A stretch of 62,430 nucleotides of DNA, counting the filler, from Barthelona sp. PAP020 (Eukaryota): assembly GCA_040182905.1 (NCBI GenBank). It is 7 parts of 7 records of this genome, joined end to end, with 100 filler letters (N's around TTAATTAATTAA, not from the genome) between each part and the next. Parts side by side here need not be neighbours in the genome. Positions count along the whole stretch, not along the records: positions 8,990 to 17,854 come from JARQWU010000441.1; 6 more parts are not named here. One strand, 5' to 3'. The first letter of the stretch is position 1; every line of letters begins with the position of its first letter. A model generated the notes under the pieces. The model saw only the letters and a program-made list of their open reading frames with translations. It did no database searches and had not been told where the DNA came from. Positions 7,922-53,786 of this stretch are shown in pieces. A program made the translations under genes and the position numbers.

Positions 7922-7936
7922 TTCTTACATAAATTA

Positions 7937-8386
7937 AGTGTTTGTAGTAAAGTGAACGGATTTCACACTAAAGACAATATAAATGTATTTAAGGTTTCTT
8001 CTTGCAATTTCTGATGTTAATGGATGTAGGTTAGCAGTGCATACCACGATTTTATCAAGGACACCCACAGAAGAATAATCAAAAAAGATTTTGGATGAAG
8101 GAAAAATTATAAAAGATCACCCTGCTCACATCTCAACCACAATAACCTCCCATATCTAAGAGTTGGATATAAACTGTTCAGAAATTAGTTTGGCAACAAC
8201 AAAAATTTCACTGAAAGACGAAGCAAAGGAAGAACAAACCTGAAATACTCCTGCATATATAAAGCTAATAATCTCAAAAGAATTAAAATTTTTAAACTGG
8301 AAAAGAGGAGATCAAAACAATAAGAATTTTATTTCTAAAGGACCACACCTCTTCAAAATATGATTTTTTTTTCCAGATTCAAAGAA
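7937..8386 (+). mobile_element. Non-autonomous element sharing termini with the YR retrotransposon (degenerate copy)
   Basis: Starts AGTGTTTGTAGTAAAGTGAACGGATTTCAC..AAAGACAATATAAATG, homologous to the element 5' end; internal block similar to 17440-17530; ends T-run-CCAGATTC like the next copy. Confidence 0.7.
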
Positions 8387-8798
8387 ATGTTCGCAGCAAA
8401 GCGGACGGATTTCACGTAAAAAACAACATTAATGCGTTTAAGGTTTCTTCTTACAATTTCTGAAATTAATGGGTATCAAAATTGAAAAGCTCAAGTAAAA
8501 ATAAACGTAATCGTAAGAATTCAAAGATTAAGGATACAAGTAAACAGGTTAGGACAACAGGGAATATCAAACTCCCAGAAAGAGAACAGAAGCGGATATA
8601 TTTAAAGTGAATCAAGGGGCTAAAGGAAAGTATTACACTTTTCTTTAAATACCCACCCTATCTAGACCGGAAGCATTTCTTTTCTTTTTTAAGAGTGTTC
8701 TGAACCATCCACGCAAAACTACTCAGTTGCAAATACCCCCAAACTCTAACCGAGAACAATTATGAGTCTTTTTTTTTTTTTTTCCAGACTCTTGTGAA
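8387..8798 (+). mobile_element. Non-autonomous element (full ~410 bp copy)
   Basis: 5' ATGTTCGCAGCAAAGCGGACGGATTTCAC; 3' GAGTGTTCTGAACCATCCACGC...CCCCAAACTCTAACC...GTGAA; both ends match the autonomous element ends. Confidence 0.85.
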
Positions 8799-8889
8799 GC
8801 GCAGCGGGCATTTCATAAGAGAGCAACAACAAGAAAATGTTTGGATGCGTTTGTGTGAGTCAAGCAAAACCCACAATATGCTAGCCTGT
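8799..8889 (+). repeat. Start of a second related repeat subfamily, cut by gap
   Basis: GCGCAGCGGGCATTTCATAAG...GAGTCAAGCAAAA matches 35730-35802 (ACGTAGCGGGCATTTCACAAG...GAATCAAGCAAAA). Confidence 0.6.
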
Positions 8890-16178: not shown

Positions 16179-17284
16179 TCACCATTAGATTAAAAAATAA
16201 TGTGTTAATAGTACATTAGTATATTCGTATTTGAGGTTTTCAAATAATAAATAATTTCATTTGCATAAGCAATCGCGTTGTTTAAAGGAATTGTTACTCA
16301 TCCAATCTTTCATTGCTTATTTAAAACGAATCAGAAGTAAAAATGTTTTTTTTTGTTGTTTTTTTGTTTTCAAGTAATTTTAAGTGTTTATCATTTGCAA
16401 ATTAGAGGTTCCTTACTTTTTAGCTGAATATCTGCAGTGATTTTCTGTGCTCTTATTCACTCAAAAGACTTCACCGGTCTTTCCCCCTAAACTTCTTGAA
16501 AAAGGAATAAAACTCCTGATGATAGTTTGAAGCGATAAAATGATTGTAATAAATTGAAATAACATTTTGTTTTGTCCTTTTTGAACCCCATGCGGAATTT
16601 TGTTTGCTTTATTCATTTCATCCTAATTAAATAGGATTATTCCACAAAGGTTAAAATTGTGAGGCACTGTGAGCATTTCAAAAGAGAAAGCAAAGTTGGG
16701 AAAATACATGAATAGTTTTTGAAAGTCAAATAATATCCACATTGCGCAAACTATCTATATTTTTATATTCCAAAGAAAATAGGATTTAAGAGTAGTTGTG
16801 CAAAGTTTCAGCGTAACAAGTACTTCACAGAAAAAGCAGTGGAAGAGATGGATTTCATGACAAAGACAAACTGAACGTTGTTTGCATTTTATTGTTGCAT
16901 GTTTGATTGACAAATAAAACCAAAAATGAATTGAAAAACTTTATGATTGAAACAACTATTCTTATTTTGGTTCTAGATTGTCAACTATGATCAAAAACTT
17001 TGAAATACTCTCTGTTAAATAATAGTTACCCAAACTTAAGTATGAAAAGAACAGTTTTTAATCTAAGTTACTCAGATTTCAACAAAGAAAAATGGTAGAC
17101 CATTTGATTGCCAAGTGGATCAAAGTAATCATCATCACAAACGTATTCAATATTGAACAAACTGGTGACAAGCAACCCAACTTAACAATGAATAAGCAAA
17201 GGTTTTGGTGTGATGTACTATTGTGTCTTGTAAAACAAGCCAAATTCTCATTCTGTAATCTATGTAAGAGCTTTTGTATCATTT

Positions 17285-17692
17285 GAGTTCACAGCAAAGC
17301 GGAAGGATTTCACGTAAAAGACAATATAAATGTGTTTAAGGTTTCTTCTTGCAATTTCTGATATTAATGGATATCAAAATTGAAAGTGAAATAACAACAT
17401 AGAATCAAATGATTCAGGGTAATAAGGACGCAAATGTGCATAGTAGATTAGCAAGGAATACAAGATTTGATCAAGGAAACCCAAAGAAGAACAATCAAAA
17501 TTTATTAGCAAGAAGGAAAAAAATTATTAAACTTTTATTTAGATAATCACCACATCCACACCTAAGGTATTTCTTTATTTTTAAGAGTGTTCTTAACCAT
17601 CCACGCAAAACGACTCAGTTGCAAGTACCCCCAAACTCTAACCGAGAACAATAAAGATCTTTATAAAAATTTATTATTATATTTCGTGTGAA
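17285..17692 (+). mobile_element. Non-autonomous element (full ~408 bp copy)
   Basis: 5' GAGTTCACAGCAAAGCGGAAGGATTTCAC; 3' CCCCAAACTCTAACCGAGAACAATAAAG...TTTATTATTATATTTCGTGTGAA, homologous to the autonomous 3' end. Confidence 0.9.
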
Positions 17693-17700
17693 TAGCAAAG

Positions 17701-17854
17701 AGTGTTCGTAGCAAAGCGGACGGATTTCACGTAAAAGACAATATAAATGTGTTTAAGGTTTCTTCTTGCAATTTCTGATATTAATGGATATCAAAATTGA
17801 AAGTGAAATAACAACAAAGAATCAAATGATTCAGGGTAATAAGGATGCAAGTGT
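17701..17854 (+). mobile_element. Non-autonomous element, tandem next copy, cut by gap
   Basis: AGTGTTCGTAGCAAAGCGGACGGATTTCAC is identical to the first 30 nt of the autonomous element; near-identical to 17285-17438. Confidence 0.9.
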
Positions 17855-17954: not shown

Positions 17955-18740
17955 GTACGGCCAGTTGAGGCCATGCAACATTTCCAGTCTTATTGTTTGA
18001 CTCGTTGGTGTTGAGTCCCACGGTGCACCCTCTACGAACTTCTTCGCGGTCTTCTTCATTAAATCAATCTGCGGAGACAGATCCACCCCCGCATGGCTTA
18101 AAGTTTTCAAAATATCACCGAGCAGCATGGCTGCTGGGATCATAAGTTTTGCTTTTTTAAAGGAGAACGCCCTTTTGCTTCCAGGGCGCTCTTCATAAAA
18201 TTTAATTCCACTGAATATCTCCTCCATCCATTGATGGTGGCGATACACAGATTCCAGTAAATTATTTTCTAACTTTTCCTCCTTATTCTTCTCCTTTTCT
18301 CTTTCTTTAGTCCAATTTTCATTTTGGCTTTTTAACAAATTCATGACTTCCTCTATTTGGTCTGAAAGGAGCGACGTTTGCTCCTCTAATGTCTGGAAAT
18401 TTTGGTTAATTTCGGCGTTAGGTTCTTCAGTCATAGGAAGGTTCTTTCCCAGGGCGAAACTTAAACAAAATAGTGATATAGAGCTGTTTAGAATATTGTT
18501 TACTTGACCTCATTTATCAATCAGATAAATTCACGTTCTTTCATTGTGTTCCGAATTAAAATAATTCTGATTGGAAACTAATTTTTACTTTACTTACAGC
18601 TTATGTAACGTTCTTATTCTTATTATAAATCATTGTATATGTATTGGATCATATTTAACAATCAGAAGTGCAAGAATAGAACCTAGAACAATGTTTATTT
18701 TGTCTTTTGGGTGAAATCCGTCCGCTTTGCTACGAACACT
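17955..18740 (-). mobile_element. YR retrotransposon copy A (5' part only; ORF start at 18434)
   Basis: 5' UTR plus first ~160 codons; protein identical to copy C over this stretch. Confidence 0.9.
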
Positions 18741-18849
18741 TTCACTCGACAAAATAATAAACATTTGATAAATTCACTCGACAAAATAATAAACATTTGA
18801 TAAAAGCTTTTTCACTCGACAAAATAATAAACATTTGATAAAAGCTTTT
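18741..18849 (-). repeat. Triple reiteration of the element 3' terminus
   Basis: TTCACTCGACAAAATAATAAACATTTGATAAA starts at 18741 (32 nt), 18773 (38 nt) and 18811 (continues into copy B). Confidence 0.95.
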
Positions 18850-21800
18850 ACTGTTCAAGGTTAGAGTTTGGGTTACTTGTCACTGGTCTGTTGTGCGTAG
18901 ATTGGTTCAGAACTCTCCTGTCCAGAATCCTTCTGAATCGAATCTGCGTACACAGAACGAGCACAGTACAATTCAACCATTGAGGTAGACTTCCATCCGC
19001 CCATCTGCTTCAGGACGTCCAAATCCCCTGGTGAATTCCCATTCTCCAATGCCTTGAACATAGACCTTGCCCTTCCTCTTCTAAACGAGTGCAGGGTCAA
19101 GGGATAATTTAAATTCATTTCTTTATTGAACCTATTCAATTCTTTGTTTAAATTCTTATTAATCTCTTTAATCTTATTTCCATCGTTTGTTAAACTTTTT
19201 ACTTTTCCATTCTTTACTCTCCATTCATAATTACCAAATATCTTCTTTTCTGTGTCTGTCTTTCCTTTTAACTCTTTCCAAAATATTGACACCTCTTTAA
19301 CATTGCTCACCTTTGGGCAATACATAAATATTAACGCTGTTGTGGGTCCAATTTTTACTTCAATTGAACCTCCCTCAATATCACTTCTTCTCGAACATGT
19401 AAAATACATTGTACATGCCGCATCTATCATATCGTACTTCATTTCTTCTGGTTGGCTGCTATTCGTAATTATGAATCTGCATAATTGTGCTAAATGTCTT
19501 CTACGAATAGCTGACTTCGGTCTGTGATCTTCAGCTGTTGGTGGTCTTAACCTCCTTTGCTTTGCCATCATTAATTTCTTCATGTTCTGGAATCCTGGTC
19601 CAGCACTCCAGCCAATAGCTTTCCAAAAGTACATCACTCCTGCGTATACTCTTCCTAACGTTTCAGTTTTCATCCTAAAATTTCCGTTGGTATCCTTTCT
19701 TTCACCTTCTGAATCGATAAATTCATGAAGCAGTGACTCCAATGTGTGATCAACTTTATCCATATCCTTACTTCTTCCCCTCTTCTTACAATAGCTTAAG
19801 AATCGGGTATAGTATCCTTCGTACTGATCCCATGTAGCTTTTGCTACTCCTAACTTCATAGTCTCCCACACTAAGGAATCACTCCATGAGTACTTCTCGA
19901 ATTCCTTCTTTACCTCGTCATAATACCCTATATCACCTTCAAATAGTCCTTGGAATATCTTCGATCTGATTTCTATACTTCTATTTCCATCAACATAATT
20001 CACTAACGGTCTCCATGCAGGGTAATCTCCATAACAAATTCCTTCAACTTCAACATCAACCCCAAATCGGGCTGCTCTTAATATTAAATCTAAAACTACA
20101 TTTTCAATGGTTTCCTTATAATACATCTTATTTCCAATTTTGCGAACTGCAGTGTAAAATAGGATTGAATCGTATCCGATTGCTGCCCAATCCTCACCTA
20201 GCTCTTCTTCTTCCTTATCTTCTAATTCTCTTTTCTCTTCATTAACTTCTTCTTCTTCTTTCCATAAATCATCTCTTAATTCTACCGGAAACTCTCCGGT
20301 CTTTATCCTAACTTTGTCTGCTATTCTCCTTATCGATTTTGACTTCCCTTGCAAATCTCTTCCTGTCCTATTCTTTAATATTGGACAACGTCTTAATGCT
20401 GTATACGACGGATACATATAACTTGGTACTTTGAATGACTCAGGACAAAATGATATATCCGAAAATACAACTCCTTTTGTTACCTCCACATTCTTGCCTC
20501 TTGACAACATATCTGCCACACTATTCCTTTCAGTAGGAATCCAGTACGGAAGTATTTGGCAGTTTAACTCTACTACCAACTCCCAAATTTTCTTTGACAG
20601 TGAACTCAATTTCATATTTGAACTCTTTTGTTTCCTAAATGCAGCCAAGGCGTTTTGATTATCAATCAACCATATCCAACACGCGTCCTTGGCTTGCTTC
20701 TTCATTTTCATTAATGCTTTCCATAAAGCTTCTAATTCAATAACAGCAATATTCTTTTCTTCGTCTTTAACTACTTCCTTATGCATATTAATCTTACTTT
20801 GATCTTTCTGTTCTAGTACCCACCCGATACCCTTTAATGAGGCATCAGTGGCAATCACTCCTGTAACTACCCTCGGGCATAACTCTCCTTTAATCTCTTC
20901 TTTCAAAACTTCTTCTAACTTTTCTTTTAAACAACTAACAATCTCTAATCTTCTCTTTCCATGCTTACTTATCAATTCTTTTAAATCTTTTGATCTATAA
21001 TAATGTTTCTTGTGATGTATCACATTTCCTAATTCCAGTGCAATTCCTCTATATCTCTGAGAAACGATACTCGCAGCTTGTAACTTCCCTTCCAATGAGA
21101 TTGCACTTTCAATCGTTAAATCGTCTAACATCTTTAACATCTTCTTTCTTTTCAATTCTGGCAAACTAATTATCCTGTTCTTTGTGTCTATCTTAAATCC
21201 TAAATACTCAACTTCTGTTGTTGGTTTTTGTACCTTTGATTCTTTAACCTTAAATCCTACTTGCTTCAGTAATTTCATCATCGTTTCAACGTTCTTCTTG
21301 CATTCCTCTAAAGTATTCCCTCCAATCAGTAAATCGTCCACATATTGCAAAACAAATATTCCTTTTGCTCTTGCAGCATCCACTGGCACTTGCAATGCCA
21401 GTGAAAAAATCTGAGCTGATACTGATGATCCGAACGGTAACCTTTGAGCTGCATATTTTTCTCCATCAACTTCCACTACTGTCTGAGACAACCATTCATC
21501 ACTAAGTGGTATATGTGTATACCCTTCCTTTATGTCTAAGACCGCGGCATATTTAGGTATTAATGGGAAATATCTATAACAATTAATTTCATGTGGCCAC
21601 ATCATACTTACCGAATTTAATGGTGTACAGTCCAATATTGGTCTAATTGTTCCATCTTGTTTTGGAACTGCACCCAAAGCTGCTTCACGTTCTACAGGAC
21701 CTTTATACTTTGTTAAAACATTTTCTTCACCTTCAGTCCATTTTGATAACACTTCTTTTAACCTATCACCAGCCCAGTGATCTACCTTATTTTCTCCTTT

Positions 21801-23012
21801 TAATTCATCGTCAATAAAAGTTGGGGCTGCAGTAACAATTTCTTCAAGTAAGTTTCTTTGTTCTTTGCTGTATCTCAACTCTTTTGCTAACTTCATGAAA
21901 GCATCAGGATTCCAAGCCCCTGTGCTTGTTTCTCCAATGGTAACAGCTACGTTCGACTTTTTTAGCACAAGTCGGCTGTTAGATTCAATCTTCAGATTTT
22001 GATCTGATTTCGACCTGTTTTTTATGTCTTCACTTTTGCCTTTAGTCAGTTTTTTTTTGATAAATTGCAGTTGTTGTTTTTCAACCTCTATTTTTTCTTT
22101 CGTTCTTAGCAATCCATCGAGCTTCTTATCAATAGTATCAAAAAAATAAATGTTGTTGCTTTTACCCTTTTCAAACTTGTTTGACCTCTGATAATCTTCC
22201 GGCTTTGAGAAGCCGTTTAGGTCAGGGTACGGCCAGTTGAGGCCATGCAACATTTCCAGTCTTATTGTTTGACTCGTTGGTGCTGAGTCCCACGGTGCAC
22301 CCTCTACGAACCTCTTTGCGGTCTTCTTCATTAAATCAATCTGCGGAGACAGATCCACCCCCGCATGGCTTAAAGTTTTCAAAATATCACCGAGCAGCAT
22401 GGCTGCTGGGATCATTAGCTTTGCTTTCTTAAAGGAGAACGCCCTTTTGCTTCCAGGGCGCTCTTCATAAAATTTAATTCCACTGAATATCTCCTCCATC
22501 CATTGATGGTGGCGATACACAGATTCCAGTAAATTATTTTCTAAATTTTCCTCCTTATTCTTCTCCTTTTCTCTTTCTTTAGTCCAATTGTCATTTTGGC
22601 TTTTTAACAAATTCATGATTTCCTCTATTTGGTCTGAAAGGAGCGACGTTTGCTCCTCTAATGTCTGGAAATTTTGGTTAATTTCGGCGTTAGGTTCTTC
22701 AGTCATAGGAAGGTTCTTTCCCAGGGCGAAACTTAAACAAAATAGTGATATAGAGCTGTTTAGAATATTGTTTACTTGACCCCATTTATCAATCAGATAA
22801 ATTCACGTTCTTTCATTGTGTTCCGAATTAAAATAATTCTGATTGGAAACTAATTTTTACTTTACTTACAGCTTATGTAACGTTCTTATTCTTATTATAA
22901 ATCATTGTATATGTATTGGATCATATTTAACAATCAGAAGTGCAAGAATAGAACCTAGAACAATGTTTATTTTGTCTTTTGGGTGAAATCCGTCCGCTTT
23001 GCTACGAACACT
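18811..23012 (-). mobile_element. Complete ~4.2 kb tyrosine-recombinase (DIRS-order) retrotransposon, copy B
   Basis: Unit defined by a 4201-bp period with copy C; ~305 nt 5' UTR, single ORF, ~62 nt 3' UTR. Confidence 0.92.
18873..22706 (-). CDS. Single polyprotein: Gag-like coiled-coil, RT, RNase H, linker, tyrosine recombinase (1277 aa)
   Basis: RT: LDIKEGYTHIPL, LPFGSSVSAQIF, YVDDLLI, YLGF; RNase H: IATDASLKGIG, IAVIELEAL, IDNQNAL, NSVADMLSR; YR: ATWDQYEGYYTRF, CSRRSD (R), HSFRRG (HxxR), GGWKS (W), VELY (Y). Confidence 0.95.
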   Translation of the reverse strand: MTEEPNAEINQNFQTLEEQTSLLSDQIEEIMNLLKSQNDNWTKEREKEKNKEENLENNLLESVYRHHQWMEEIFSGIKFYEERPGSKRAFSFKKAKLMIPAAMLLGDILKTLSHAGVDLSPQIDLMKKTAKRFVEGAPWDSAPTSQTIRLEMLHGLNWPYPDLNGFSKPEDYQRSNKFEKGKSNNIYFFDTIDKKLDGLLRTKEKIEVEKQQLQFIKKKLTKGKSEDIKNRSKSDQNLKIESNSRLVLKKSNVAVTIGETSTGAWNPDAFMKLAKELRYSKEQRNLLEEIVTAAPTFIDDELKGENKVDHWAGDRLKEVLSKWTEGEENVLTKYKGPVEREAALGAVPKQDGTIRPILDCTPLNSVSMMWPHEINCYRYFPLIPKYAAVLDIKEGYTHIPLSDEWLSQTVVEVDGEKYAAQRLPFGSSVSAQIFSLALQVPVDAARAKGIFVLQYVDDLLIGGNTLEECKKNVETMMKLLKQVGFKVKESKVQKPTTEVEYLGFKIDTKNRIISLPELKRKKMLKMLDDLTIESAISLEGKLQAASIVSQRYRGIALELGNVIHHKKHYYRSKDLKELISKHGKRRLEIVSCLKEKLEEVLKEEIKGELCPRVVTGVIATDASLKGIGWVLEQKDQSKINMHKEVVKDEEKNIAVIELEALWKALMKMKKQAKDACWIWLIDNQNALAAFRKQKSSNMKLSSLSKKIWELVVELNCQILPYWIPTERNSVADMLSRGKNVEVTKGVVFSDISFCPESFKVPSYMYPSYTALRRCPILKNRTGRDLQGKSKSIRRIADKVRIKTGEFPVELRDDLWKEEEEVNEEKRELEDKEEEELGEDWAAIGYDSILFYTAVRKIGNKMYYKETIENVVLDLILRAARFGVDVEVEGICYGDYPAWRPLVNYVDGNRSIEIRSKIFQGLFEGDIGYYDEVKKEFEKYSWSDSLVWETMKLGVAKATWDQYEGYYTRFLSYCKKRGRSKDMDKVDHTLESLLHEFIDSEGERKDTNGNFRMKTETLGRVYAGVMYFWKAIGWSAGPGFQNMKKLMMAKQRRLRPPTAEDHRPKSAIRRRHLAQLCRFIITNSSQPEEMKYDMIDAACTMYFTCSRRSDIEGGSIEVKIGPTTALIFMYCPKVSNVKEVSIFWKELKGKTDTEKKIFGNYEWRVKNGKVKSLTNDGNKIKEINKNLNKELNRFNKEMNLNYPLTLHSFRRGRARSMFKALENGNSPGDLDVLKQMGGWKSTSMVELYCARSVYADSIQKDSGQESSEPIYAQQTSDK

Positions 23013-26000
23013 TCACTCGACAAAATAATAAACATTTGATAAAAGCTTTTACTGTTCAAGGTTAGAGTTTGGGTTACTTGTCACTGGTCTGTTGTGCGTA
23101 GATTGGTTCAGAACTCTCCTGTCCAGAATCCTTCTGAATCGAATCTGCGTACACAGAACGAGCACAGTACAATTCAACCATTGAGGTAGACTTCCATCCG
23201 CCCATCTGCTTCAGGACGTCCAAATCCCCTGGTGAATTCCCATTCTCCAATGCCTTGAACATAGACCTTGCCCTTCCTCTTCTAAACGAGTGCAGGGTCA
23301 AGGGATAATTTAAATTCATTTCTTTATTGAACCTATTCAATTCTTTGTTTAAATTCTTATTAATCTCTTTAATCTTATTTCCATCGTTTGTTAAACTTTT
23401 TACTTTTCCATTCTTTACTCTCCATTCATAATTACCAAATATCTTCTTTTCTGTGTCTGTCTTTCCTTTTAACTCTTTCCAAAATATTGACACCTCTTTA
23501 ACATTGCTCACCTTTGGGCAATACATAAATATTAACGCTGTTGTGGGTCCAATTTTTACTTCAATTGAACCTCCCTCAATATCACTTCTTCTCGAACATG
23601 TAAAATACATTGTACATGCCGCATCTATCATATCGTACTTCATTTCTTCTGGTTGGCTGCTATTCGTAATTATGAATCTGCATAATTGTGCTAAATGTCT
23701 TCTACGAATAGCTGACTTCGGTCTGTGATCTTCAGCTGTTGGTGGTCTTAACCTCCTTTGCTTTGCCATCATTAATTTCTTCATGTTCTGGAATCCTGGT
23801 CCAGCACTCCAGCCAATAGCTTTCCAAAAGTACATCACTCCTGCGTATACTCTTCCTAACGTTTCAGTTTTCATCCTAAAATTTCCGTTGGTATCCTTTC
23901 TTTCACCTTCTGAATCGATAAATTCATGAAGCAGTGACTCCAATGTGTGATCAACTTTATCCATATCCTTACTTCTTCCCCTCTTCTTACAATAGCTTAA
24001 GAATCGGGTATAGTATCCTTCGTACTGATCCCATGTAGCTTTTGCTACTCCTAACTTCATAGTCTCCCACACTAAGGAATCACTCCATGAGTACTTCTCG
24101 AATTCCTTCTTTACCTCGTCATAATACCCTATATCACCTTCAAATAGTCCTTGGAATATCTTCGATCTGATTTCTATACTTCTATTTCCATCAACATAAT
24201 TCACTAACGGTCTCCATGCAGGGTAATCTCCATAACAAATTCCTTCAACTTCAACATCAACCCCAAATCGGGCTGCTCTTAATATTAAATCTAAAACTAC
24301 ATTTTCAATGGTTTCCTTATAATACATCTTATTTCCAATTTTGCGAACTGCAGTGTAAAATAGGATTGAATCGTATCCGATTGCTGCCCAATCCTCACCT
24401 AGCTCTTCTTCTTCCTTATCTTCTAATTCTCTTTTCTCTTCATTAACTTCTTCTTCTTCTTTCCATAAATCATCTCTTAATTCTACCGGAAACTCTCCGG
24501 TCTTTATCCTAACTTTGTCTGCTATTCTCCTTATCGATTTTGACTTCCCTTGCAAATCTCTTCCTGTCCTATTCTTTAATATTGGACAACGTCTTAATGC
24601 TGTATACGACGGATACATATAACTTGGTACTTTGAATGACTCAGGACAAAATGATATATCCGAAAATACAACTCCTTTTGTTACCTCCACATTCTTGCCT
24701 CTTGACAACATATCTGCCACACTATTCCTTTCAGTAGGAATCCAGTACGGAAGTATTTGGCAGTTTAACTCTACTACCAACTCCCAAATTTTCTTTGACA
24801 GTGAACTCAATTTCATATTTGAACTCTTTTGTTTCCTAAATGCAGCCAAGGCGTTTTGATTATCAATCAACCATATCCAACACGCGTCCTTGGCTTGCTT
24901 CTTCATTTTCATTAATGCTTTCCATAAAGCTTCTAATTCAATAACAGCAATATTCTTTTCTTCGTCTTTAACTACTTCCTTATGCATATTAATCTTACTT
25001 TGATCTTTCTGTTCTAGTACCCACCCGATACCCTTTAATGAGGCATCAGTGGCAATCACTCCTGTAACTACCCTCGGGCATAACTCTCCTTTAATCTCTT
25101 CTTTCAAAACTTCTTCTAACTTTTCTTTTAAACAACTAACAATCTCTAATCTTCTCTTTCCATGCTTACTTATCAATTCTTTTAAATCTTTTGATCTATA
25201 ATAATGTTTCTTGTGATGTATCACATTTCCTAATTCCAGTGCAATTCCTCTATATCTCTGAGAAACGATACTCGCAGCTTGTAACTTCCCTTCCAATGAG
25301 ATTGCACTTTCAATCGTTAAATCGTCTAACATCTTTAACATCTTCTTTCTTTTCAATTCTGGCAAACTAATTATCCTGTTCTTTGTGTCTATCTTAAATC
25401 CTAAATACTCAACTTCTGTTGTTGGTTTTTGTACCTTTGATTCTTTAACCTTAAATCCTACTTGCTTCAGTAATTTCATCATCGTTTCAACGTTCTTCTT
25501 GCATTCCTCTAAAGTATTCCCTCCAATCAGTAAATCGTCCACATATTGCAAAACAAATATTCCTTTTGCTCTTGCAGCATCCACTGGCACTTGCAATGCC
25601 AGTGAAAAAATCTGAGCTGATACTGATGATCCGAACGGTAACCTTTGAGCTGCATATTTTTCTCCATCAACTTCCACTACTGTCTGAGACAACCATTCAT
25701 CACTAAGTGGTATATGTGTATACCCTTCCTTTATGTCTAAGACCGCGGCATATTTAGGTATTAATGGGAAATATCTATAACAATTAATTTCATGTGGCCA
25801 CATCATACTTACCGAATTTAATGGTGTACAATCCAATATTGGTCTGATTGTTCCATCTTGTTTTGGAACTGCACCCAAAGCTGCTTCACGTTCTACAGGA
25901 CCTTTATACTTTGTTAAAACATTTTCTTCACCTTCAGTCCATTTTGATAACACTTCTTTTAACCTATCACCAGCCCAGTGATCTACTTTATTTTCTCCTT

Positions 26001-26941
26001 TTAATTCATCGTCAATAAAAGTTGGGGCTGCAGTAACAATTTCTTCAAGTAAGTTTCTTTGTTCCTTGCTGTATCTCAATTCTTTTGCTAACTTCATGAA
26101 AGCATCAGGATTCCAAGCTCCTGTGCTTGTTTCTCCAATGGTGACGGCTACGTTTGACCTTTTTAACACAAGTCGGCTGTCCGATTCAATCTTCAGATTT
26201 TGATCTGATTTCGACCTGTTTTTTATGTCTTCACTTTTGCCTTTAGTCAGTTTTTTTTTGATAAATTGCAGTTGTTGTTTTTCAACCTCTATCTTTTCTT
26301 TCGTTCTTAGCAATCCATCGAGCTTCTTATCAATAGTATCAAAAAAATAAATGTTGTTGCTTTTACCCTTTTCAAACTTGTTTGACCTCTGATGATCTTC
26401 CGGCTTTGAGAAGCCGTTTAGGTCAGGGTACGGCCAGTTGAGGCCATGCAACATTTCCAGTCTTATTGTTTGACTCGTTGGTGTTGAGTCCCACGGTGCA
26501 CCCTCTACGAACTTCTTCGCGGTCTTCTTCATTAAATCAATCTGCGGAGACAGATCCACCCCCGCATGGCTTAAAGTTTTCAAAATATCACCGAGCAGCA
26601 TGGCTGCTGGGATCATAAGTTTTGCTTTTTTAAAGGAGAACGCCCTTTTGCTTCCAGGGCGCTCTTCATAAAATTTAATTCCACTGAATATCTCCTCCAT
26701 CCATTGATGGTGGCGATACACAGATTCCAGTAAATTATTTTCTAACTTTTCCTCCTTATTCTTCTCCTTTTCTCTTTCTTTAGTCCAATTTTCATTTTGG
26801 CTTTTTAACAAATTCATGACTTCCTCTATTTGGTCTGAAAGGAGCGACGTTTGCTCCTCTAATGTCTGGAAATTTTGGTTAATTTCGGCGTTAGGTTCTT
26901 CAGTCATAGGAAGGTTCTTTCCCAGGGCGAAACTTAAACAA
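23012..26941 (-). mobile_element. YR retrotransposon copy C (5' UTR cut by gap)
   Basis: Direct head-to-tail repeat of copy B. Confidence 0.92.
23074..26907 (-). CDS. Gag-RT-RNase H-YR polyprotein (1277 aa), second intact copy
   Basis: Same motifs as copy B; 8 amino-acid differences, all in the first ~250 residues. Confidence 0.95.
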   Translation of the reverse strand: MTEEPNAEINQNFQTLEEQTSLLSDQIEEVMNLLKSQNENWTKEREKEKNKEEKLENNLLESVYRHHQWMEEIFSGIKFYEERPGSKRAFSFKKAKLMIPAAMLLGDILKTLSHAGVDLSPQIDLMKKTAKKFVEGAPWDSTPTSQTIRLEMLHGLNWPYPDLNGFSKPEDHQRSNKFEKGKSNNIYFFDTIDKKLDGLLRTKEKIEVEKQQLQFIKKKLTKGKSEDIKNRSKSDQNLKIESDSRLVLKRSNVAVTIGETSTGAWNPDAFMKLAKELRYSKEQRNLLEEIVTAAPTFIDDELKGENKVDHWAGDRLKEVLSKWTEGEENVLTKYKGPVEREAALGAVPKQDGTIRPILDCTPLNSVSMMWPHEINCYRYFPLIPKYAAVLDIKEGYTHIPLSDEWLSQTVVEVDGEKYAAQRLPFGSSVSAQIFSLALQVPVDAARAKGIFVLQYVDDLLIGGNTLEECKKNVETMMKLLKQVGFKVKESKVQKPTTEVEYLGFKIDTKNRIISLPELKRKKMLKMLDDLTIESAISLEGKLQAASIVSQRYRGIALELGNVIHHKKHYYRSKDLKELISKHGKRRLEIVSCLKEKLEEVLKEEIKGELCPRVVTGVIATDASLKGIGWVLEQKDQSKINMHKEVVKDEEKNIAVIELEALWKALMKMKKQAKDACWIWLIDNQNALAAFRKQKSSNMKLSSLSKKIWELVVELNCQILPYWIPTERNSVADMLSRGKNVEVTKGVVFSDISFCPESFKVPSYMYPSYTALRRCPILKNRTGRDLQGKSKSIRRIADKVRIKTGEFPVELRDDLWKEEEEVNEEKRELEDKEEEELGEDWAAIGYDSILFYTAVRKIGNKMYYKETIENVVLDLILRAARFGVDVEVEGICYGDYPAWRPLVNYVDGNRSIEIRSKIFQGLFEGDIGYYDEVKKEFEKYSWSDSLVWETMKLGVAKATWDQYEGYYTRFLSYCKKRGRSKDMDKVDHTLESLLHEFIDSEGERKDTNGNFRMKTETLGRVYAGVMYFWKAIGWSAGPGFQNMKKLMMAKQRRLRPPTAEDHRPKSAIRRRHLAQLCRFIITNSSQPEEMKYDMIDAACTMYFTCSRRSDIEGGSIEVKIGPTTALIFMYCPKVSNVKEVSIFWKELKGKTDTEKKIFGNYEWRVKNGKVKSLTNDGNKIKEINKNLNKELNRFNKEMNLNYPLTLHSFRRGRARSMFKALENGNSPGDLDVLKQMGGWKSTSMVELYCARSVYADSIQKDSGQESSEPIYAQQTSDK

Positions 26942-27444: not shown

Positions 27445-28662
27445 TTATAAAGTCAAAAATTGGGCATAATTGTTCATTGGATTCGTCTCCTCCTTCATAT
27501 TCGATACATCAGGGTTATAAGAAGAAAAGCTAAAATCAACATTGTTGCTATACGGTAATTGATAAGCTCCTAAATTCATTAAAGGTGTATTAGTCATCGT
27601 TTGATTTGGCAACATGCCATTTGAATTCAACAAATTCATTGTTTGATTTGTAAAAACAGTTTGTTCAGGAGTAGTGATAAAGGGCGACATCATCACCATA
27701 TTTTGCAATGGATAATTCATCATATCAGATTTGTATGGTAAATAGTTCTGCATGTAGGGTGTACCATTAACTGGAACAGTTAAATTATTTTCTGGTTGAA
27801 TCAATGACGGTGGTGGTGTAGACATTGGTCTCTTTGAAGATCTTCTTCCAATGTTAGAATCTTCAGGAGGTGAATGATGATGTTCATGCTCGTAAGTAAT
27901 AATCAACGAACTATCTGGACTATTATTATTCTTTTGAACTAATTTTTTCGCACAACAATCCTTATGAGCACATTTGAAATAGGATTTGGAAGTATTTGAC
28001 CCTTTAACAGTTTTTTGTCCATATTTCTTCCAAGAAAACCCATCCACTACAAAATCAACATTATTTGAAGCTTCAACAATTAGCCGACGTTCAGCATATG
28101 ATCCGGATGGTTTAGGTAGAGCACTAACATCAACAGTAACATCTCCCATTGTATATTTAAGAACCAAATCCCTAAATTCTTCCTGACTATTTGCATATTC
28201 TTTCCTCACGGTTGGTCTGGAGTGATTATGCTCACCTTTATAGACTGAAGTAATTTCAGCGTCTTCAAATCGTTTGGATATTTGTCTCTTACATGGACAA
28301 CCTGGGAATGCACATTTGTAATAACAGGTGGGAAACGGATTATTTTTAGAAAATTTTTGCCCATACTTTCTCCAATGAAACCCATCATCGATAACATCTG
28401 AAGAATAATAAGAATGTTGTCTCCTCTTTCGGTTGGTGTTTTCGGTTTGATCCGAAACCATCAAATTAAAATCTTTAAAAGGATTATTAATAGGAGAGTA
28501 TTGATTCTGTTGGTTCATTTCAGTTAAATTATTGAAAGTTTGAGACATATTAGGAGAAACAAATTGAGGAAATGGTGTTTCATGACTAAAACCATTTGGA
28601 GCATAATAATAACCACTGTTTGAATTCATTTGACCACTTGGGGGATAAATTATGTGATTCAT
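27445..28662 (-). CDS. WRKY transcription factor with two WRKY domains
   Basis: DDGFHWRKYGQK...YYKCAFPGCPCKRQI...HNH and DGFSWKKYGQK...YFKCAHKDCCAKK...HHH (C2H2 zinc ligands). Confidence 0.93.
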   Translation of the reverse strand: MNHIIYPPSGQMNSNSGYYYAPNGFSHETPFPQFVSPNMSQTFNNLTEMNQQNQYSPINNPFKDFNLMVSDQTENTNRKRRQHSYYSSDVIDDGFHWRKYGQKFSKNNPFPTCYYKCAFPGCPCKRQISKRFEDAEITSVYKGEHNHSRPTVRKEYANSQEEFRDLVLKYTMGDVTVDVSALPKPSGSYAERRLIVEASNNVDFVVDGFSWKKYGQKTVKGSNTSKSYFKCAHKDCCAKKLVQKNNNSPDSSLIITYEHEHHHSPPEDSNIGRRSSKRPMSTPPPSLIQPENNLTVPVNGTPYMQNYLPYKSDMMNYPLQNMVMMSPFITTPEQTVFTNQTMNLLNSNGMLPNQTMTNTPLMNLGAYQLPYSNNVDFSFSSYNPDVSNMKEETNPMNNYAQFLTL

Positions 28663-35084: not shown

Positions 35085-35412
35085 TATTGCATCTAAACAT
35101 CAAAAAGAAAGAATTGGAAAAAATTTTGAAAATGAATCATACAAAGATTTTGGAAACAAATAAAGATTTATATTTTAATAATTGCAAAAAAAGAAGAAAA
35201 AAAAGACTTTGATAAAAAATTTTGAAAAGAGGAATTTTAACTCACTTAATTTTTAGAGAATAATCGTTTACAGTTCTCTTTTTTAATCAAATACAAATTG
35301 TTTCTTAAAAGTTTTTTTACACCAACACTTTGAAAATTTCAATTGTGATTTCTTGATCAAAATATTTTAATAACTAGATATTTAAATACTTACAAATAAA
35401 TGGAAACAATTG

Positions 35413-35729
35413 CATCAGTAGCAAAATGGACGGATTTGACTCAAAGACAATATAAGTGAGTTTAGGATTTCTTTTTTGTAATTACTTGTATTAATGAGAA
35501 TCAAAATTGAAAAACTCAAGCAATAAAACGGAATCTTAGGTATTCTAAGTAAATAGGAACAAAGAAAAAAGAACATCAAAGTGTTACAAAGAGAACATAA
35601 GTGGAGACATTTAAAGTGAAGCCATGGGCTAAAGGAAAGTATTACACTTTACTTTAAATACACGCCCCATCTAAACCGGAAGCATTTTTTTTTCAAGACT
35701 GTTCTGAACCACCCAAAATGAATTGTGAA
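35413..35729 (+). mobile_element. Degenerate non-autonomous element copy
   Basis: GTAGCAAAATGGACGGATTTGACTCAAAGACAATATAA 5' end; internal GGGCTAAAGGAAAGTATTACACTTT shared with the 8387 copy; GTTCTGAACCA...GTGAA 3' end. Confidence 0.8.
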
Positions 35730-35838
35730 ACGTAGCGGGCATTTCACAAGGAGGGAAAAAGAAAAGCGTGAAGAAATGCGCCAGAATTTGAATCAAGCAA
35801 AATTTCTCGTATTTCAAAATTTATCAAATAATAAAACA
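35730..35838 (+). repeat. Second related subfamily start, cut by gap
   Basis: Matches 8799-8889. Confidence 0.6.
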
Positions 35839-36069
35839 NNNNNNNNNNNNNNNNNNNNNNNNNNNNNNNNNNNNNNNNNNNNTTAATTAATTAANNNNNN
35901 NNNNNNNNNNNNNNNNNNNNNNNNNNNNNNNNNNNNNNTTGGGCATCTGAATCCACGTGAGTTTTCCCCAAACCTTAAGCTAACTCGTTTCGTTGTTCAC
36001 TGAACAACTCATACCTCATAAATATCTAATAAAAAATGAGCGGCTGCAATTGAATCTTGGTTATCAAGT

Positions 36070-36560
36070 ATTAAAATTTTGGAAAAATTTTCCATTCCTA
36101 TTTTTTTGAATTTTTGCAAAAGCAAAATTTTAAAGTTTAAAGTTTTTCAACAGATCAATCGGGCCTTGAAAGCCTTTAACCAAATAAACACTATTCTTTT
36201 TTATTCACTCATACGCACAATGATTCTTGGCTTGGAAATAAATGAAGCAATCATGTGTATTTAATAGGAAATTGTACCCAAAAAACTTATTAAAAAAAAT
36301 TTTTAATAAAAAAATAAAAAATAAGTGGCTGAAAGCTAATTTTAATGATCAAGTTTGAAAATTTTAGAAAGATATTCCTATTCCAGTTCTTTGTACAGAT
36401 ACAAGAGCAAAATTTTAAGTGTAGTTCTTTCTTTAGAGAAAATTGATTTTGAAAGATAAATTGGATTTTGAAAGCCTTCAGCCAAAATGAACACATTTCT
36501 TTCTTATTCCTCATATGCACAATGCTGATTGGCTCAGAAATACACATGAATAGAAATGAA
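36070..36560 (+). repeat. Interspersed repeat, two diverged tandem units
   Basis: 36146-36241 nearly identical to 53681-53776; diverged second unit around 36468-36545 (TTGAAAGCCTT..CCAAA..AACAC..TTATTC.CTCATA.GCACAATG). Confidence 0.75.
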
Positions 36561-53680: not shown

Positions 53681-53786
53681 TTCAACAGATCAATCGGGCC
53701 TCGAAAGCCTTTAACCAAATAAACACCATTCTTTTTTATTCACTCATACGCACAGTGCTCTTTGGCTTGGAAATAATCTATTTTCC

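Follow-up and report, generated by a model that had tools for sequence, protein, structure and literature searches.

The non-autonomous PAT-type element TOC1 of Chlamydomonas, which is several kilobases long, combines a full split-repeat layout with proven mobility. Retrotransposons with a gene for a tyrosine recombinase (YR) that carry split direct repeats are described as having the layout A1-ORFs-B1-A2-B2 (PMC9210276), and the ends of DIRS elements as sharing a di- or trinucleotide core at the junction (PMC7192593, PMC9210276). The SIRE repeat of Trypanosoma cruzi has been redefined as A2 plus B2 of VIPER, in which A and B measure 173 and 219 bp in this species, and its authors leave undecided whether SIRE is mobile or a remnant (PMC6681497). 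Isolated AB repeats of Ngaro elements, scattered in the genome of Cafeteria burkhardae, have been likened to solo LTRs (PMC8547959). The units described here are of this already known kind (SIRE, solo AB repeats, TOC1-type partners); what is new is the family, which occurs in a little-studied lineage. For YR retrotransposons in general, no primer is known and the specificity of the recombinase is reported as unexamined, while priming, circularisation and target choice are still largely untested (PMC7192593).

The analysed window comprises 62,430 nt of Barthelona sp. PAP020, namely seven contigs of ~8.8 kb each separated by N linkers, from an AT-rich and gene-dense eukaryotic genome. Of eight host proteins looked up, five occur in EukProt; the TrpRS, whose best hits reach 51% or less, gave no placement of the host. 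All comparisons of units were confined to this window, and z scores are given relative to shuffled sequences. Short gene-less units reside on contigs 1, 2, and 4, and an autonomous element occupies contig 3. The units are head-plus-tail pieces of a DIRS-order retrotransposon, with its 5′ and 3′ ends joined without the ORF. Three of the six contigs other than contig 3 bear such units, which is a high density, and all three unit clusters extend up to contig ends.

Five related units, hereafter type I, were identified on the plus strand; they share 75–95% identity and fall into subfamilies Ia (8386 and 35410) and Ib (17285 and 7936). The preliminary description had listed five ~400-bp copies on three contigs, and the contigs stand (1, 2, and 4), but only the units at 8386–8798 and 17285–17692 are complete, and a sixth, older unit had been missed. 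The complete Ia unit (8386–8798) is 413 nt long (307 + 106), with its tail starting at 8693 and ending in TTGTGAA. The complete Ib unit of ~410 bp consists of a head (17285–17375), an interior (17376–17584), and a tail, or B part (approximately 17585–17692), that ends in GTGAA. It is separated from a second head by 8 nt (17693–17700, TAGCAAAG) identical to nucleotides 9–16 of that head. The second head, with 64 nt of interior (17701–17854), runs for 154 nt before the contig breaks off and matches the 17285 unit at 146 of 153 positions, the closest pair; it could continue into a tail, forming a gene-less dimer, or into the ORF of a full-length sister element. The stretch 17285–17854, previously given as the span of the family, thus comprises one full unit, 8 nt, and the opening part of another. 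The Ib unit at 7936–8114 (z 12.2), located 15 nt past a host stop codon, has an internal deletion of ~75 nt and no tail, and the Ia unit at 35410–35729 has a 14-nt interior deletion and a mostly deleted tail (33 nt kept), which nonetheless ends in TTGTGAA. A profile search of the window recovered the five known copies and a weak sixth head at 16847. The 270 nt between two units (8115–8385) weakly resemble the interior end or the tail (z up to 2.7) and are possibly a further decayed unit.

Contig 3 (17955–26941) is made up of a 4.2-kb element repeated head to tail on the minus strand; each copy has a single ORF of 1277 amino acids that encodes, in this order, the RT, RNase H, a linker of ~200 aa, and the tyrosine recombinase. 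The complete autonomous unit (18812–23013, 4202 nt) contains a 307-nt 5′ UTR, the ORF (22706–18873), and a 61-nt 3′ UTR; its protein landmarks are the RT motif YVDD at residue 455, RNase H at 619–736, and the recombinase residues R1106..HSFR1206..W1238..Y1247. The second copy (23014–26941) has an intact ORF (26907–23074) and differs from the first by 24 substitutions, all confined to the initial 1.1 kb (synonymous in 16 codons, non-synonymous in 8), whereas the last 2.8 kb of the two copies are identical. The third copy (17955–18741) is truncated by the contig end. The contig also closes on itself, positions 17955–18468 being identical to 26428–26941 (514 nt), and in view of this self-closure and of the identical 2.8 kb, contig 3 may merely trace a cycle in the assembly; even so, its local junctions may be real. 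Before the next head lie two additional copies of the 3′ tail, also on the minus strand (18742–18811; 38 and 32 nt), each ending at the same GAGTGAA, and this common last base marks the 3′ end of the element. These additional tails would fit repeated re-priming or RT template jumps at a fixed RNA 3′ end, as well as slippage. The start of the contig (26941) lies 34 nt upstream of the ATG, near the expected end of an A repeat covering the 5′ UTR, which could reflect a branch in the assembly graph or chance. Inside the contig-3 unit no internal copy of the head or tail was found. Comparison of the head with the reverse-complemented tail (z 1.5) revealed no inverted terminal repeats, no long inverted repeat was detected, and comparison of the junction with the antisense of the interior (z 0.0) revealed no internal complementary region.

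The contig-3 element belongs to the DIRS order, since it combines RT and RNase H with a tyrosine recombinase in place of an integrase. Pfam recognizes RVT_1 in the 1277-aa protein (E 2e-21), with RNase H and Phage_integrase scoring under their cut-offs; Phage_integrase exceeds its cut-off in the relatives P0003 and P0004. The predicted fold of the recombinase matches Cre (E 2e-7) in a model with a mean pLDDT of 52 (70–90 in the recombinase part), the R, HxxR, W, and Y residues are kept, and the catalytic motifs are conserved across three families. The RT-RNase H part is closest to DIRS-order proteins, and in a quick tree (44 of 152 rows passed the motif filter; the element protein, P0002, was filtered out and is represented by P0017, P0003, and P0004) the element forms a long branch without assignment to a DIRS subgroup. 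Only three close relatives were found, all of them transcriptome proteins sourced as Barthelona sp. PAP020: P0003 and P0004 are full-length (39%), and P0017 is partial (74–76% amino-acid identity). The same three were the only matches of a profile search against 1.84 billion representatives at E ≤ 1e-30, and they represent sister autonomous families. No further protein relatives were present among 156 candidate stretches from metagenome contigs or 77 from viral contigs, and a 27-nt head pattern had 0 matches in the metagenome contigs. The linker between RNase H and the recombinase (P0002 residues 737–930) is conserved in all four proteins, P0017 spanning its first part only. It occupies the place of the DIRS methyltransferase, and its model pLDDT is under 50; neither a Dam match nor any match in the atlas was obtained, and it resembles the MT-like region of P0018 only faintly (in one of the four proteins, 7 of 1000 shuffles; in the profile comparison, 9 of 500). 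An endonuclease is absent among the Pfam matches of the element protein. RT and recombinase on single predicted proteins also occur in other eukaryotes, and single-ORF copies are known for TATE, so the ORF fusion by itself is not new.

Like TOC1, the units are gene-less partners of a YR retrotransposon, but they show neither its split-repeat layout nor its mobility. The likeness to SIRE proposed in the preliminary description holds, as does the link to a YR retrotransposon: SIRE is likewise dispersed, combines the 5′ end of a YR element, an exclusive middle, and the 3′ end, and is of similar size (185 + ~30 + 220 bp; PMC6681497). The units of Barthelona differ from it in that their exclusive middle is ~210 nt long, their ends are 78–84% identical to those of the partner, and they are clustered head to tail. 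The contig-3 element itself falls outside VIPER/TATE, its order being RT-RNase H-YR in one ORF and its relatives coming from Barthelona, whereas VIPER and TATE are described as kinetoplastid-only, with the YR before RT/RH and mostly three ORFs (PMC6681497). TATE of Leishmania braziliensis also forms tandem clusters, and single-ORF copies are reported in Bodo saltans, but TATE inserts in telomeric hexamers and has the YR before the RT (PMC6681497), whereas the flanks observed here are intergenic rather than telomeric repeats. A closer parallel in layout is provided by Ngaro in Cafeteria, another protist genome, where isolated A+B units accompany RT-RNase H-YR elements of several divergent families; there, however, the full A1-ORFs-B1A2B2 parent is seen (PMC8547959), whereas here it is inferred, and the partner is a single-ORF element on a long RT-RNase H branch. 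With DIRS1-like elements the contig-3 element shares the recombinase after RNase H and a short AA core at the junction (PMC7192593, PMC9210276), but it is not DIRS1-like, having neither inverted terminal repeats nor an internal complementary region; it also has no recognisable methyltransferase.

The correspondence between the unit ends and the autonomous element was confirmed. Positions 17701–17730, noted previously as 30 nt identical to the autonomous 5′ end, match both copies exactly (from 23012 and 18740, minus strand), and the similarity indeed runs for ~90 nt (z 14.2, 0/100 shuffles). The tail alignment likewise covers the ~110 nt that had been claimed (z 19.8, 0/100 shuffles) and begins 45 nt inside the ORF, 106 nt before the element end. 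The conserved blocks of the unit are ~90 and ~70 nt long. The tail measures 106–108 nt in the units and in the contig-3 element alike; it starts at an offset of 300 and 307 nt in the complete units and of 287 nt plus the 14-nt deletion in the 35410 unit, the autonomous 5′ UTR being 307 nt.

The interiors align with one another (56–95% identity) but have no match in the contig-3 ORF or in its 5′ UTR (z between −1.5 and 1.1 in local alignments); against the 5′ UTR, summed z values were 0.5–1.75 in nine settings, and one pair reached a global z of 2.2, with controls up to 1.4. That the interior derives from a decayed autonomous ORF, the explanation against which the preliminary description was to be tested, is rejected at the DNA, profile, and protein levels, and within the window tblastn detected no ORF relics outside contig 3 and no ORF-bearing copy with a type-I interior was seen. 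The description of the interior as unrelated and non-coding is upheld for the lack of a coding signal and of an alignment to the ORF or 5′ UTR, but "unrelated" here means only unalignable, and common descent is possible. Several other candidates for the interior were rejected, including a small gene (stop depletion P 0.10–0.80, no codon-position bias) and a likeness to the recombinase GGW motif (z ≤ 0.5). A structured RNA was likewise rejected for the units (fold z 0.2–0.6; compensatory change in the 5′ hairpin in 0 of 12 pairs). Between subfamilies Ia and Ib, 146 of 160 positions of the ends are identical vs. 125 of 207 in the interiors (Fisher p 6e-12), i.e., the interior diverged about six times as much, a ratio taken from one pair. 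In one of three pairs (8387 vs. 35413), the ends are not conserved above the interior (87/118 vs. 154/193). Scaled to the contig-3 family, the ratio of six predicts an interior identity of 34–42%, and 98/231 is observed; at such divergence, homology between the interior and the 5′ UTR would be invisible. The conserved ends probably mark cis signals, whether the units are solo repeats or are mobilised in trans. The five heads form a cluster that excludes the contig-3 head (support 91/95; 21 diagnostic columns, not all independent of the alignment), which indicates that the parent of the type-I units is another, sister family.

An older ORF-less unit of the contig-3 family itself lies at about 16830–17234 (plus strand), upstream of the 17285 unit. 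It is made up of a head (z 9.1), a UTR-like interior (z 8.3), and a tail (z 6.2) that ends in GTAAA instead of GTGAA, and its interior aligns to the autonomous 5′ UTR as far as element nucleotide ~256 (local z 8.3, 0/2000).

We favour, with about an even chance of its being right, an origin of the ~410-bp units from sister autonomous families, whose A+B split direct repeats they would be, either solo or as tails, without being copied in their own right. The parent would have the layout A1-ORF-B1-A2-B2, in which A would be nearly the whole 5′ UTR (~300 nt) and B the final ~107 nt. According to the known model, a circle would be made from it via RNA, and the recombinase would insert this circle at the B|A junction (..GTG-AA-GTG..); the ORF would later be lost as A1 recombined with A2, so that a single A+B unit stayed behind. 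The seemingly unrelated interior would then be the fast-evolving 5′ UTR of a sister family, and repeated integration at existing B ends could build both the mixed clusters and the head-to-tail run of contig 3, unless the latter is an assembly cycle. Such a passive origin is favoured by the length of head plus interior, which equals that of the 5′ UTR (in two complete copies, a match spotted after the fact), together with the older unit consisting of UTR plus tail. That the clusters extend to contig ends would be expected with a longer multicopy element next to them, and the published solo AB repeats of Ngaro and SIRE as A2+B2 provide a precedent. Against a solo-repeat origin, no A1-ORF-B1-A2-B2 copy is present in the window, and the contig-3 unit is assembled as a tandem A-ORF-B; the window holds both B|A junctions and A-to-B joints, spread over different families or copies. 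The density of the units would also demand many insertions each of which then lost its ORF, and integration by a recombinase would not be expected to produce the 17-nt repeat flanking the 8386 unit.

Mobilisation of a gene-less monomer or an A-B-A-B dimer in trans, by the RT and recombinase of the single-ORF element, explains the data about as well and is a reading that we hold tentatively, at clearly less than even weight. It accommodates five copies with 75–95% identity on three contigs with unrelated left flanks, a non-coding interior that cannot be aligned to the partner, and ends that are far better conserved than the interior between the subfamilies, but each of these points is equally expected of solo AB repeats. 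The head-to-tail arrangement of 17285 and 17701 with a common interior sequence (146/153) might represent a dimer; the 17701 unit, however, stops after 154 nt, so that 17285–17854 reads A-B-A, and the 8386 and 35410 units are monomers without the internal B|A junction of split-repeat elements (PMC9210276). The RT of DIRS-1 is reported to act in trans (PMC7192593), and if the partner is a tandem A-ORF-B without internal repeats, a monomer could be a competent substrate, yet no pair of copies is closer than 95%. The proposal of a trans-mobilised parasite in the preliminary description keeps its link to a YR retrotransposon, but it is not implied by the copy number, and SIRE, its model, has itself been redefined as A2+B2 of VIPER. 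The more specific version, in which a repeat-less single-ORF element (neither inverted terminal repeats and internal complementary region nor split repeats) obtains the junction for its circle from the neighbouring unit in the array and mobilises the 410-bp parasite as monomers or dimers, is rather doubtful. The solo-repeat and trans-mobilised readings are not exclusive, since an A-B-A-B dimer would be both.

Two further explanations were considered, both of low probability. Internal-deletion relics of the contig-3 element, later spread by segmental or tandem duplication, would account for the older unit at 16830–17234 and for the subfamily and right flank shared by the 8386 and 35410 units, as in a duplicated block. 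As a general explanation they are improbable, because type-I interiors cannot be aligned to the contig-3 ORF or UTR in spite of the 78–84% identity of the ends, the heads share diagnostic differences, and no relation is seen between the left flanks, even directly beside the head. A tRNA-derived, SINE-like element, transcribed by Pol III and inserted by target-primed reverse transcription, is suggested by perfect matches to the Pol III A-box consensus TRGCNNAGYGG ~9 nt into the head (17709, 23004, and 18732; three in the window, all in heads, vs. 0.2 expected), and by the T15 tail and flanking 17-nt repeat of the 8386 copy. The B box, however, matches no head, T4–T9 runs within the units precede the tail, ARAGORN predicted 0 tRNAs, Rfam gave 0 families at the gathering score with tRNA absent even at E ≤ 10, and the folding is unremarkable (see the z values above). 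The same head also opens a protein-coding element without an endonuclease among its Pfam matches, and we consider a SINE very improbable.

The sequence GTGAA ends three full tails (those of two units and of the contig-3 element) as well as the shortened tail of the 35410 unit. At the junctions of the contig-3 element the tail and head share a single AA or AAA, whereas two of five unit left ends lack AA; by analogy with DIRS ends, and considering the AT-rich genome, the shared bases hint weakly at a short crossover core of the recombinase. The palindrome GTGAA..TTCAC at the element junctions (folding z −1.4 to 0.3) is no more than suggestive of a putative recombinase site. A direct repeat of 17 nt was found at one of the two complete copies: positions 8364–8380 (plus strand), just left of the 8386 unit, repeat 8775–8791 with one mismatch, and the sequence occurs only in these two places in the window. 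It may be either a target duplication or a leftover of a preceding tail. To the right of the 8386 unit lies a module (8799–8889, plus strand) that begins head-like, AGCGG..ATTTCA, and is homologous to the module following the 35410 unit (35730–35838, plus strand, truncated by the contig end; z 7.6, 0/1000). The likeness of the first module to the head reaches a z of only 0.9–2.2, and the modules are possibly either third-family heads or a target common to both units. A palindrome, TTGTGAA-N13-TTCA(C/T)AA, spans the tail end and the right-flank module at both loci (8786–8821 and 35725–35749; folding z −2.4 and −1.7), possibly a recombinase target or a third-family head. The left flanks were also examined as a common target, which was rejected (z −1.5 to 0.1), as was the start of contig 5 as a candidate tail (z −0.1 and −0.6).

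A block of the tail at the stop codon is invariant (18859–18875 and 23060–23076, minus strand; 8738–8751 and 17630–17643). It matches (CCCTAA)n, the telomere C-strand repeat, at 15 of 17 nt (0/30 element shuffles), in a post hoc comparison in which five repeat units were tried and with a repeat that may not be the host's. TTAGGG is the reported telomere repeat in a Skoliomonas relative, and a different repeat is reported in a Barthelona.

No description of this family was found in the literature on single-ORF or head-to-tail YR retrotransposons or on those of metamonads (including PMC4157794, PMC12278014, and PMC11316075), a search that covered passages of papers outside subscription journals and Repbase. 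In the main text of the barthelonid genome paper the strings "retrotranspos" and "recombinase" are absent from both versions and "DIRS" from the published version. If the units are solo repeats, they are ordinary transposon debris in a new lineage. If they are mobile parasites of a repeat-less tandem element, they would represent a YR retro-parasite of minimal, SIRE-like size that is nevertheless mobile, with a further route of restoring DIRS ends, and, within the literature searched, the first such system in metamonads. A compact single-ORF element with intact copies and a 410-bp unit also offers a convenient system for questions of priming, circularisation, and target choice and of the mobility of SIRE-type units.

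The window contains other features of note. A second, unrelated family of non-coding repeats (36028–36240, 36313–36542, and 53681–53776; 71–94% identity) is found at the left end of contig 5 and of contig 7 and has no Rfam match at the gathering score. A host gene on the minus strand (27445–28662) encodes two WRKY DNA-binding domains, a family that is best known in plants and patchy among protists.
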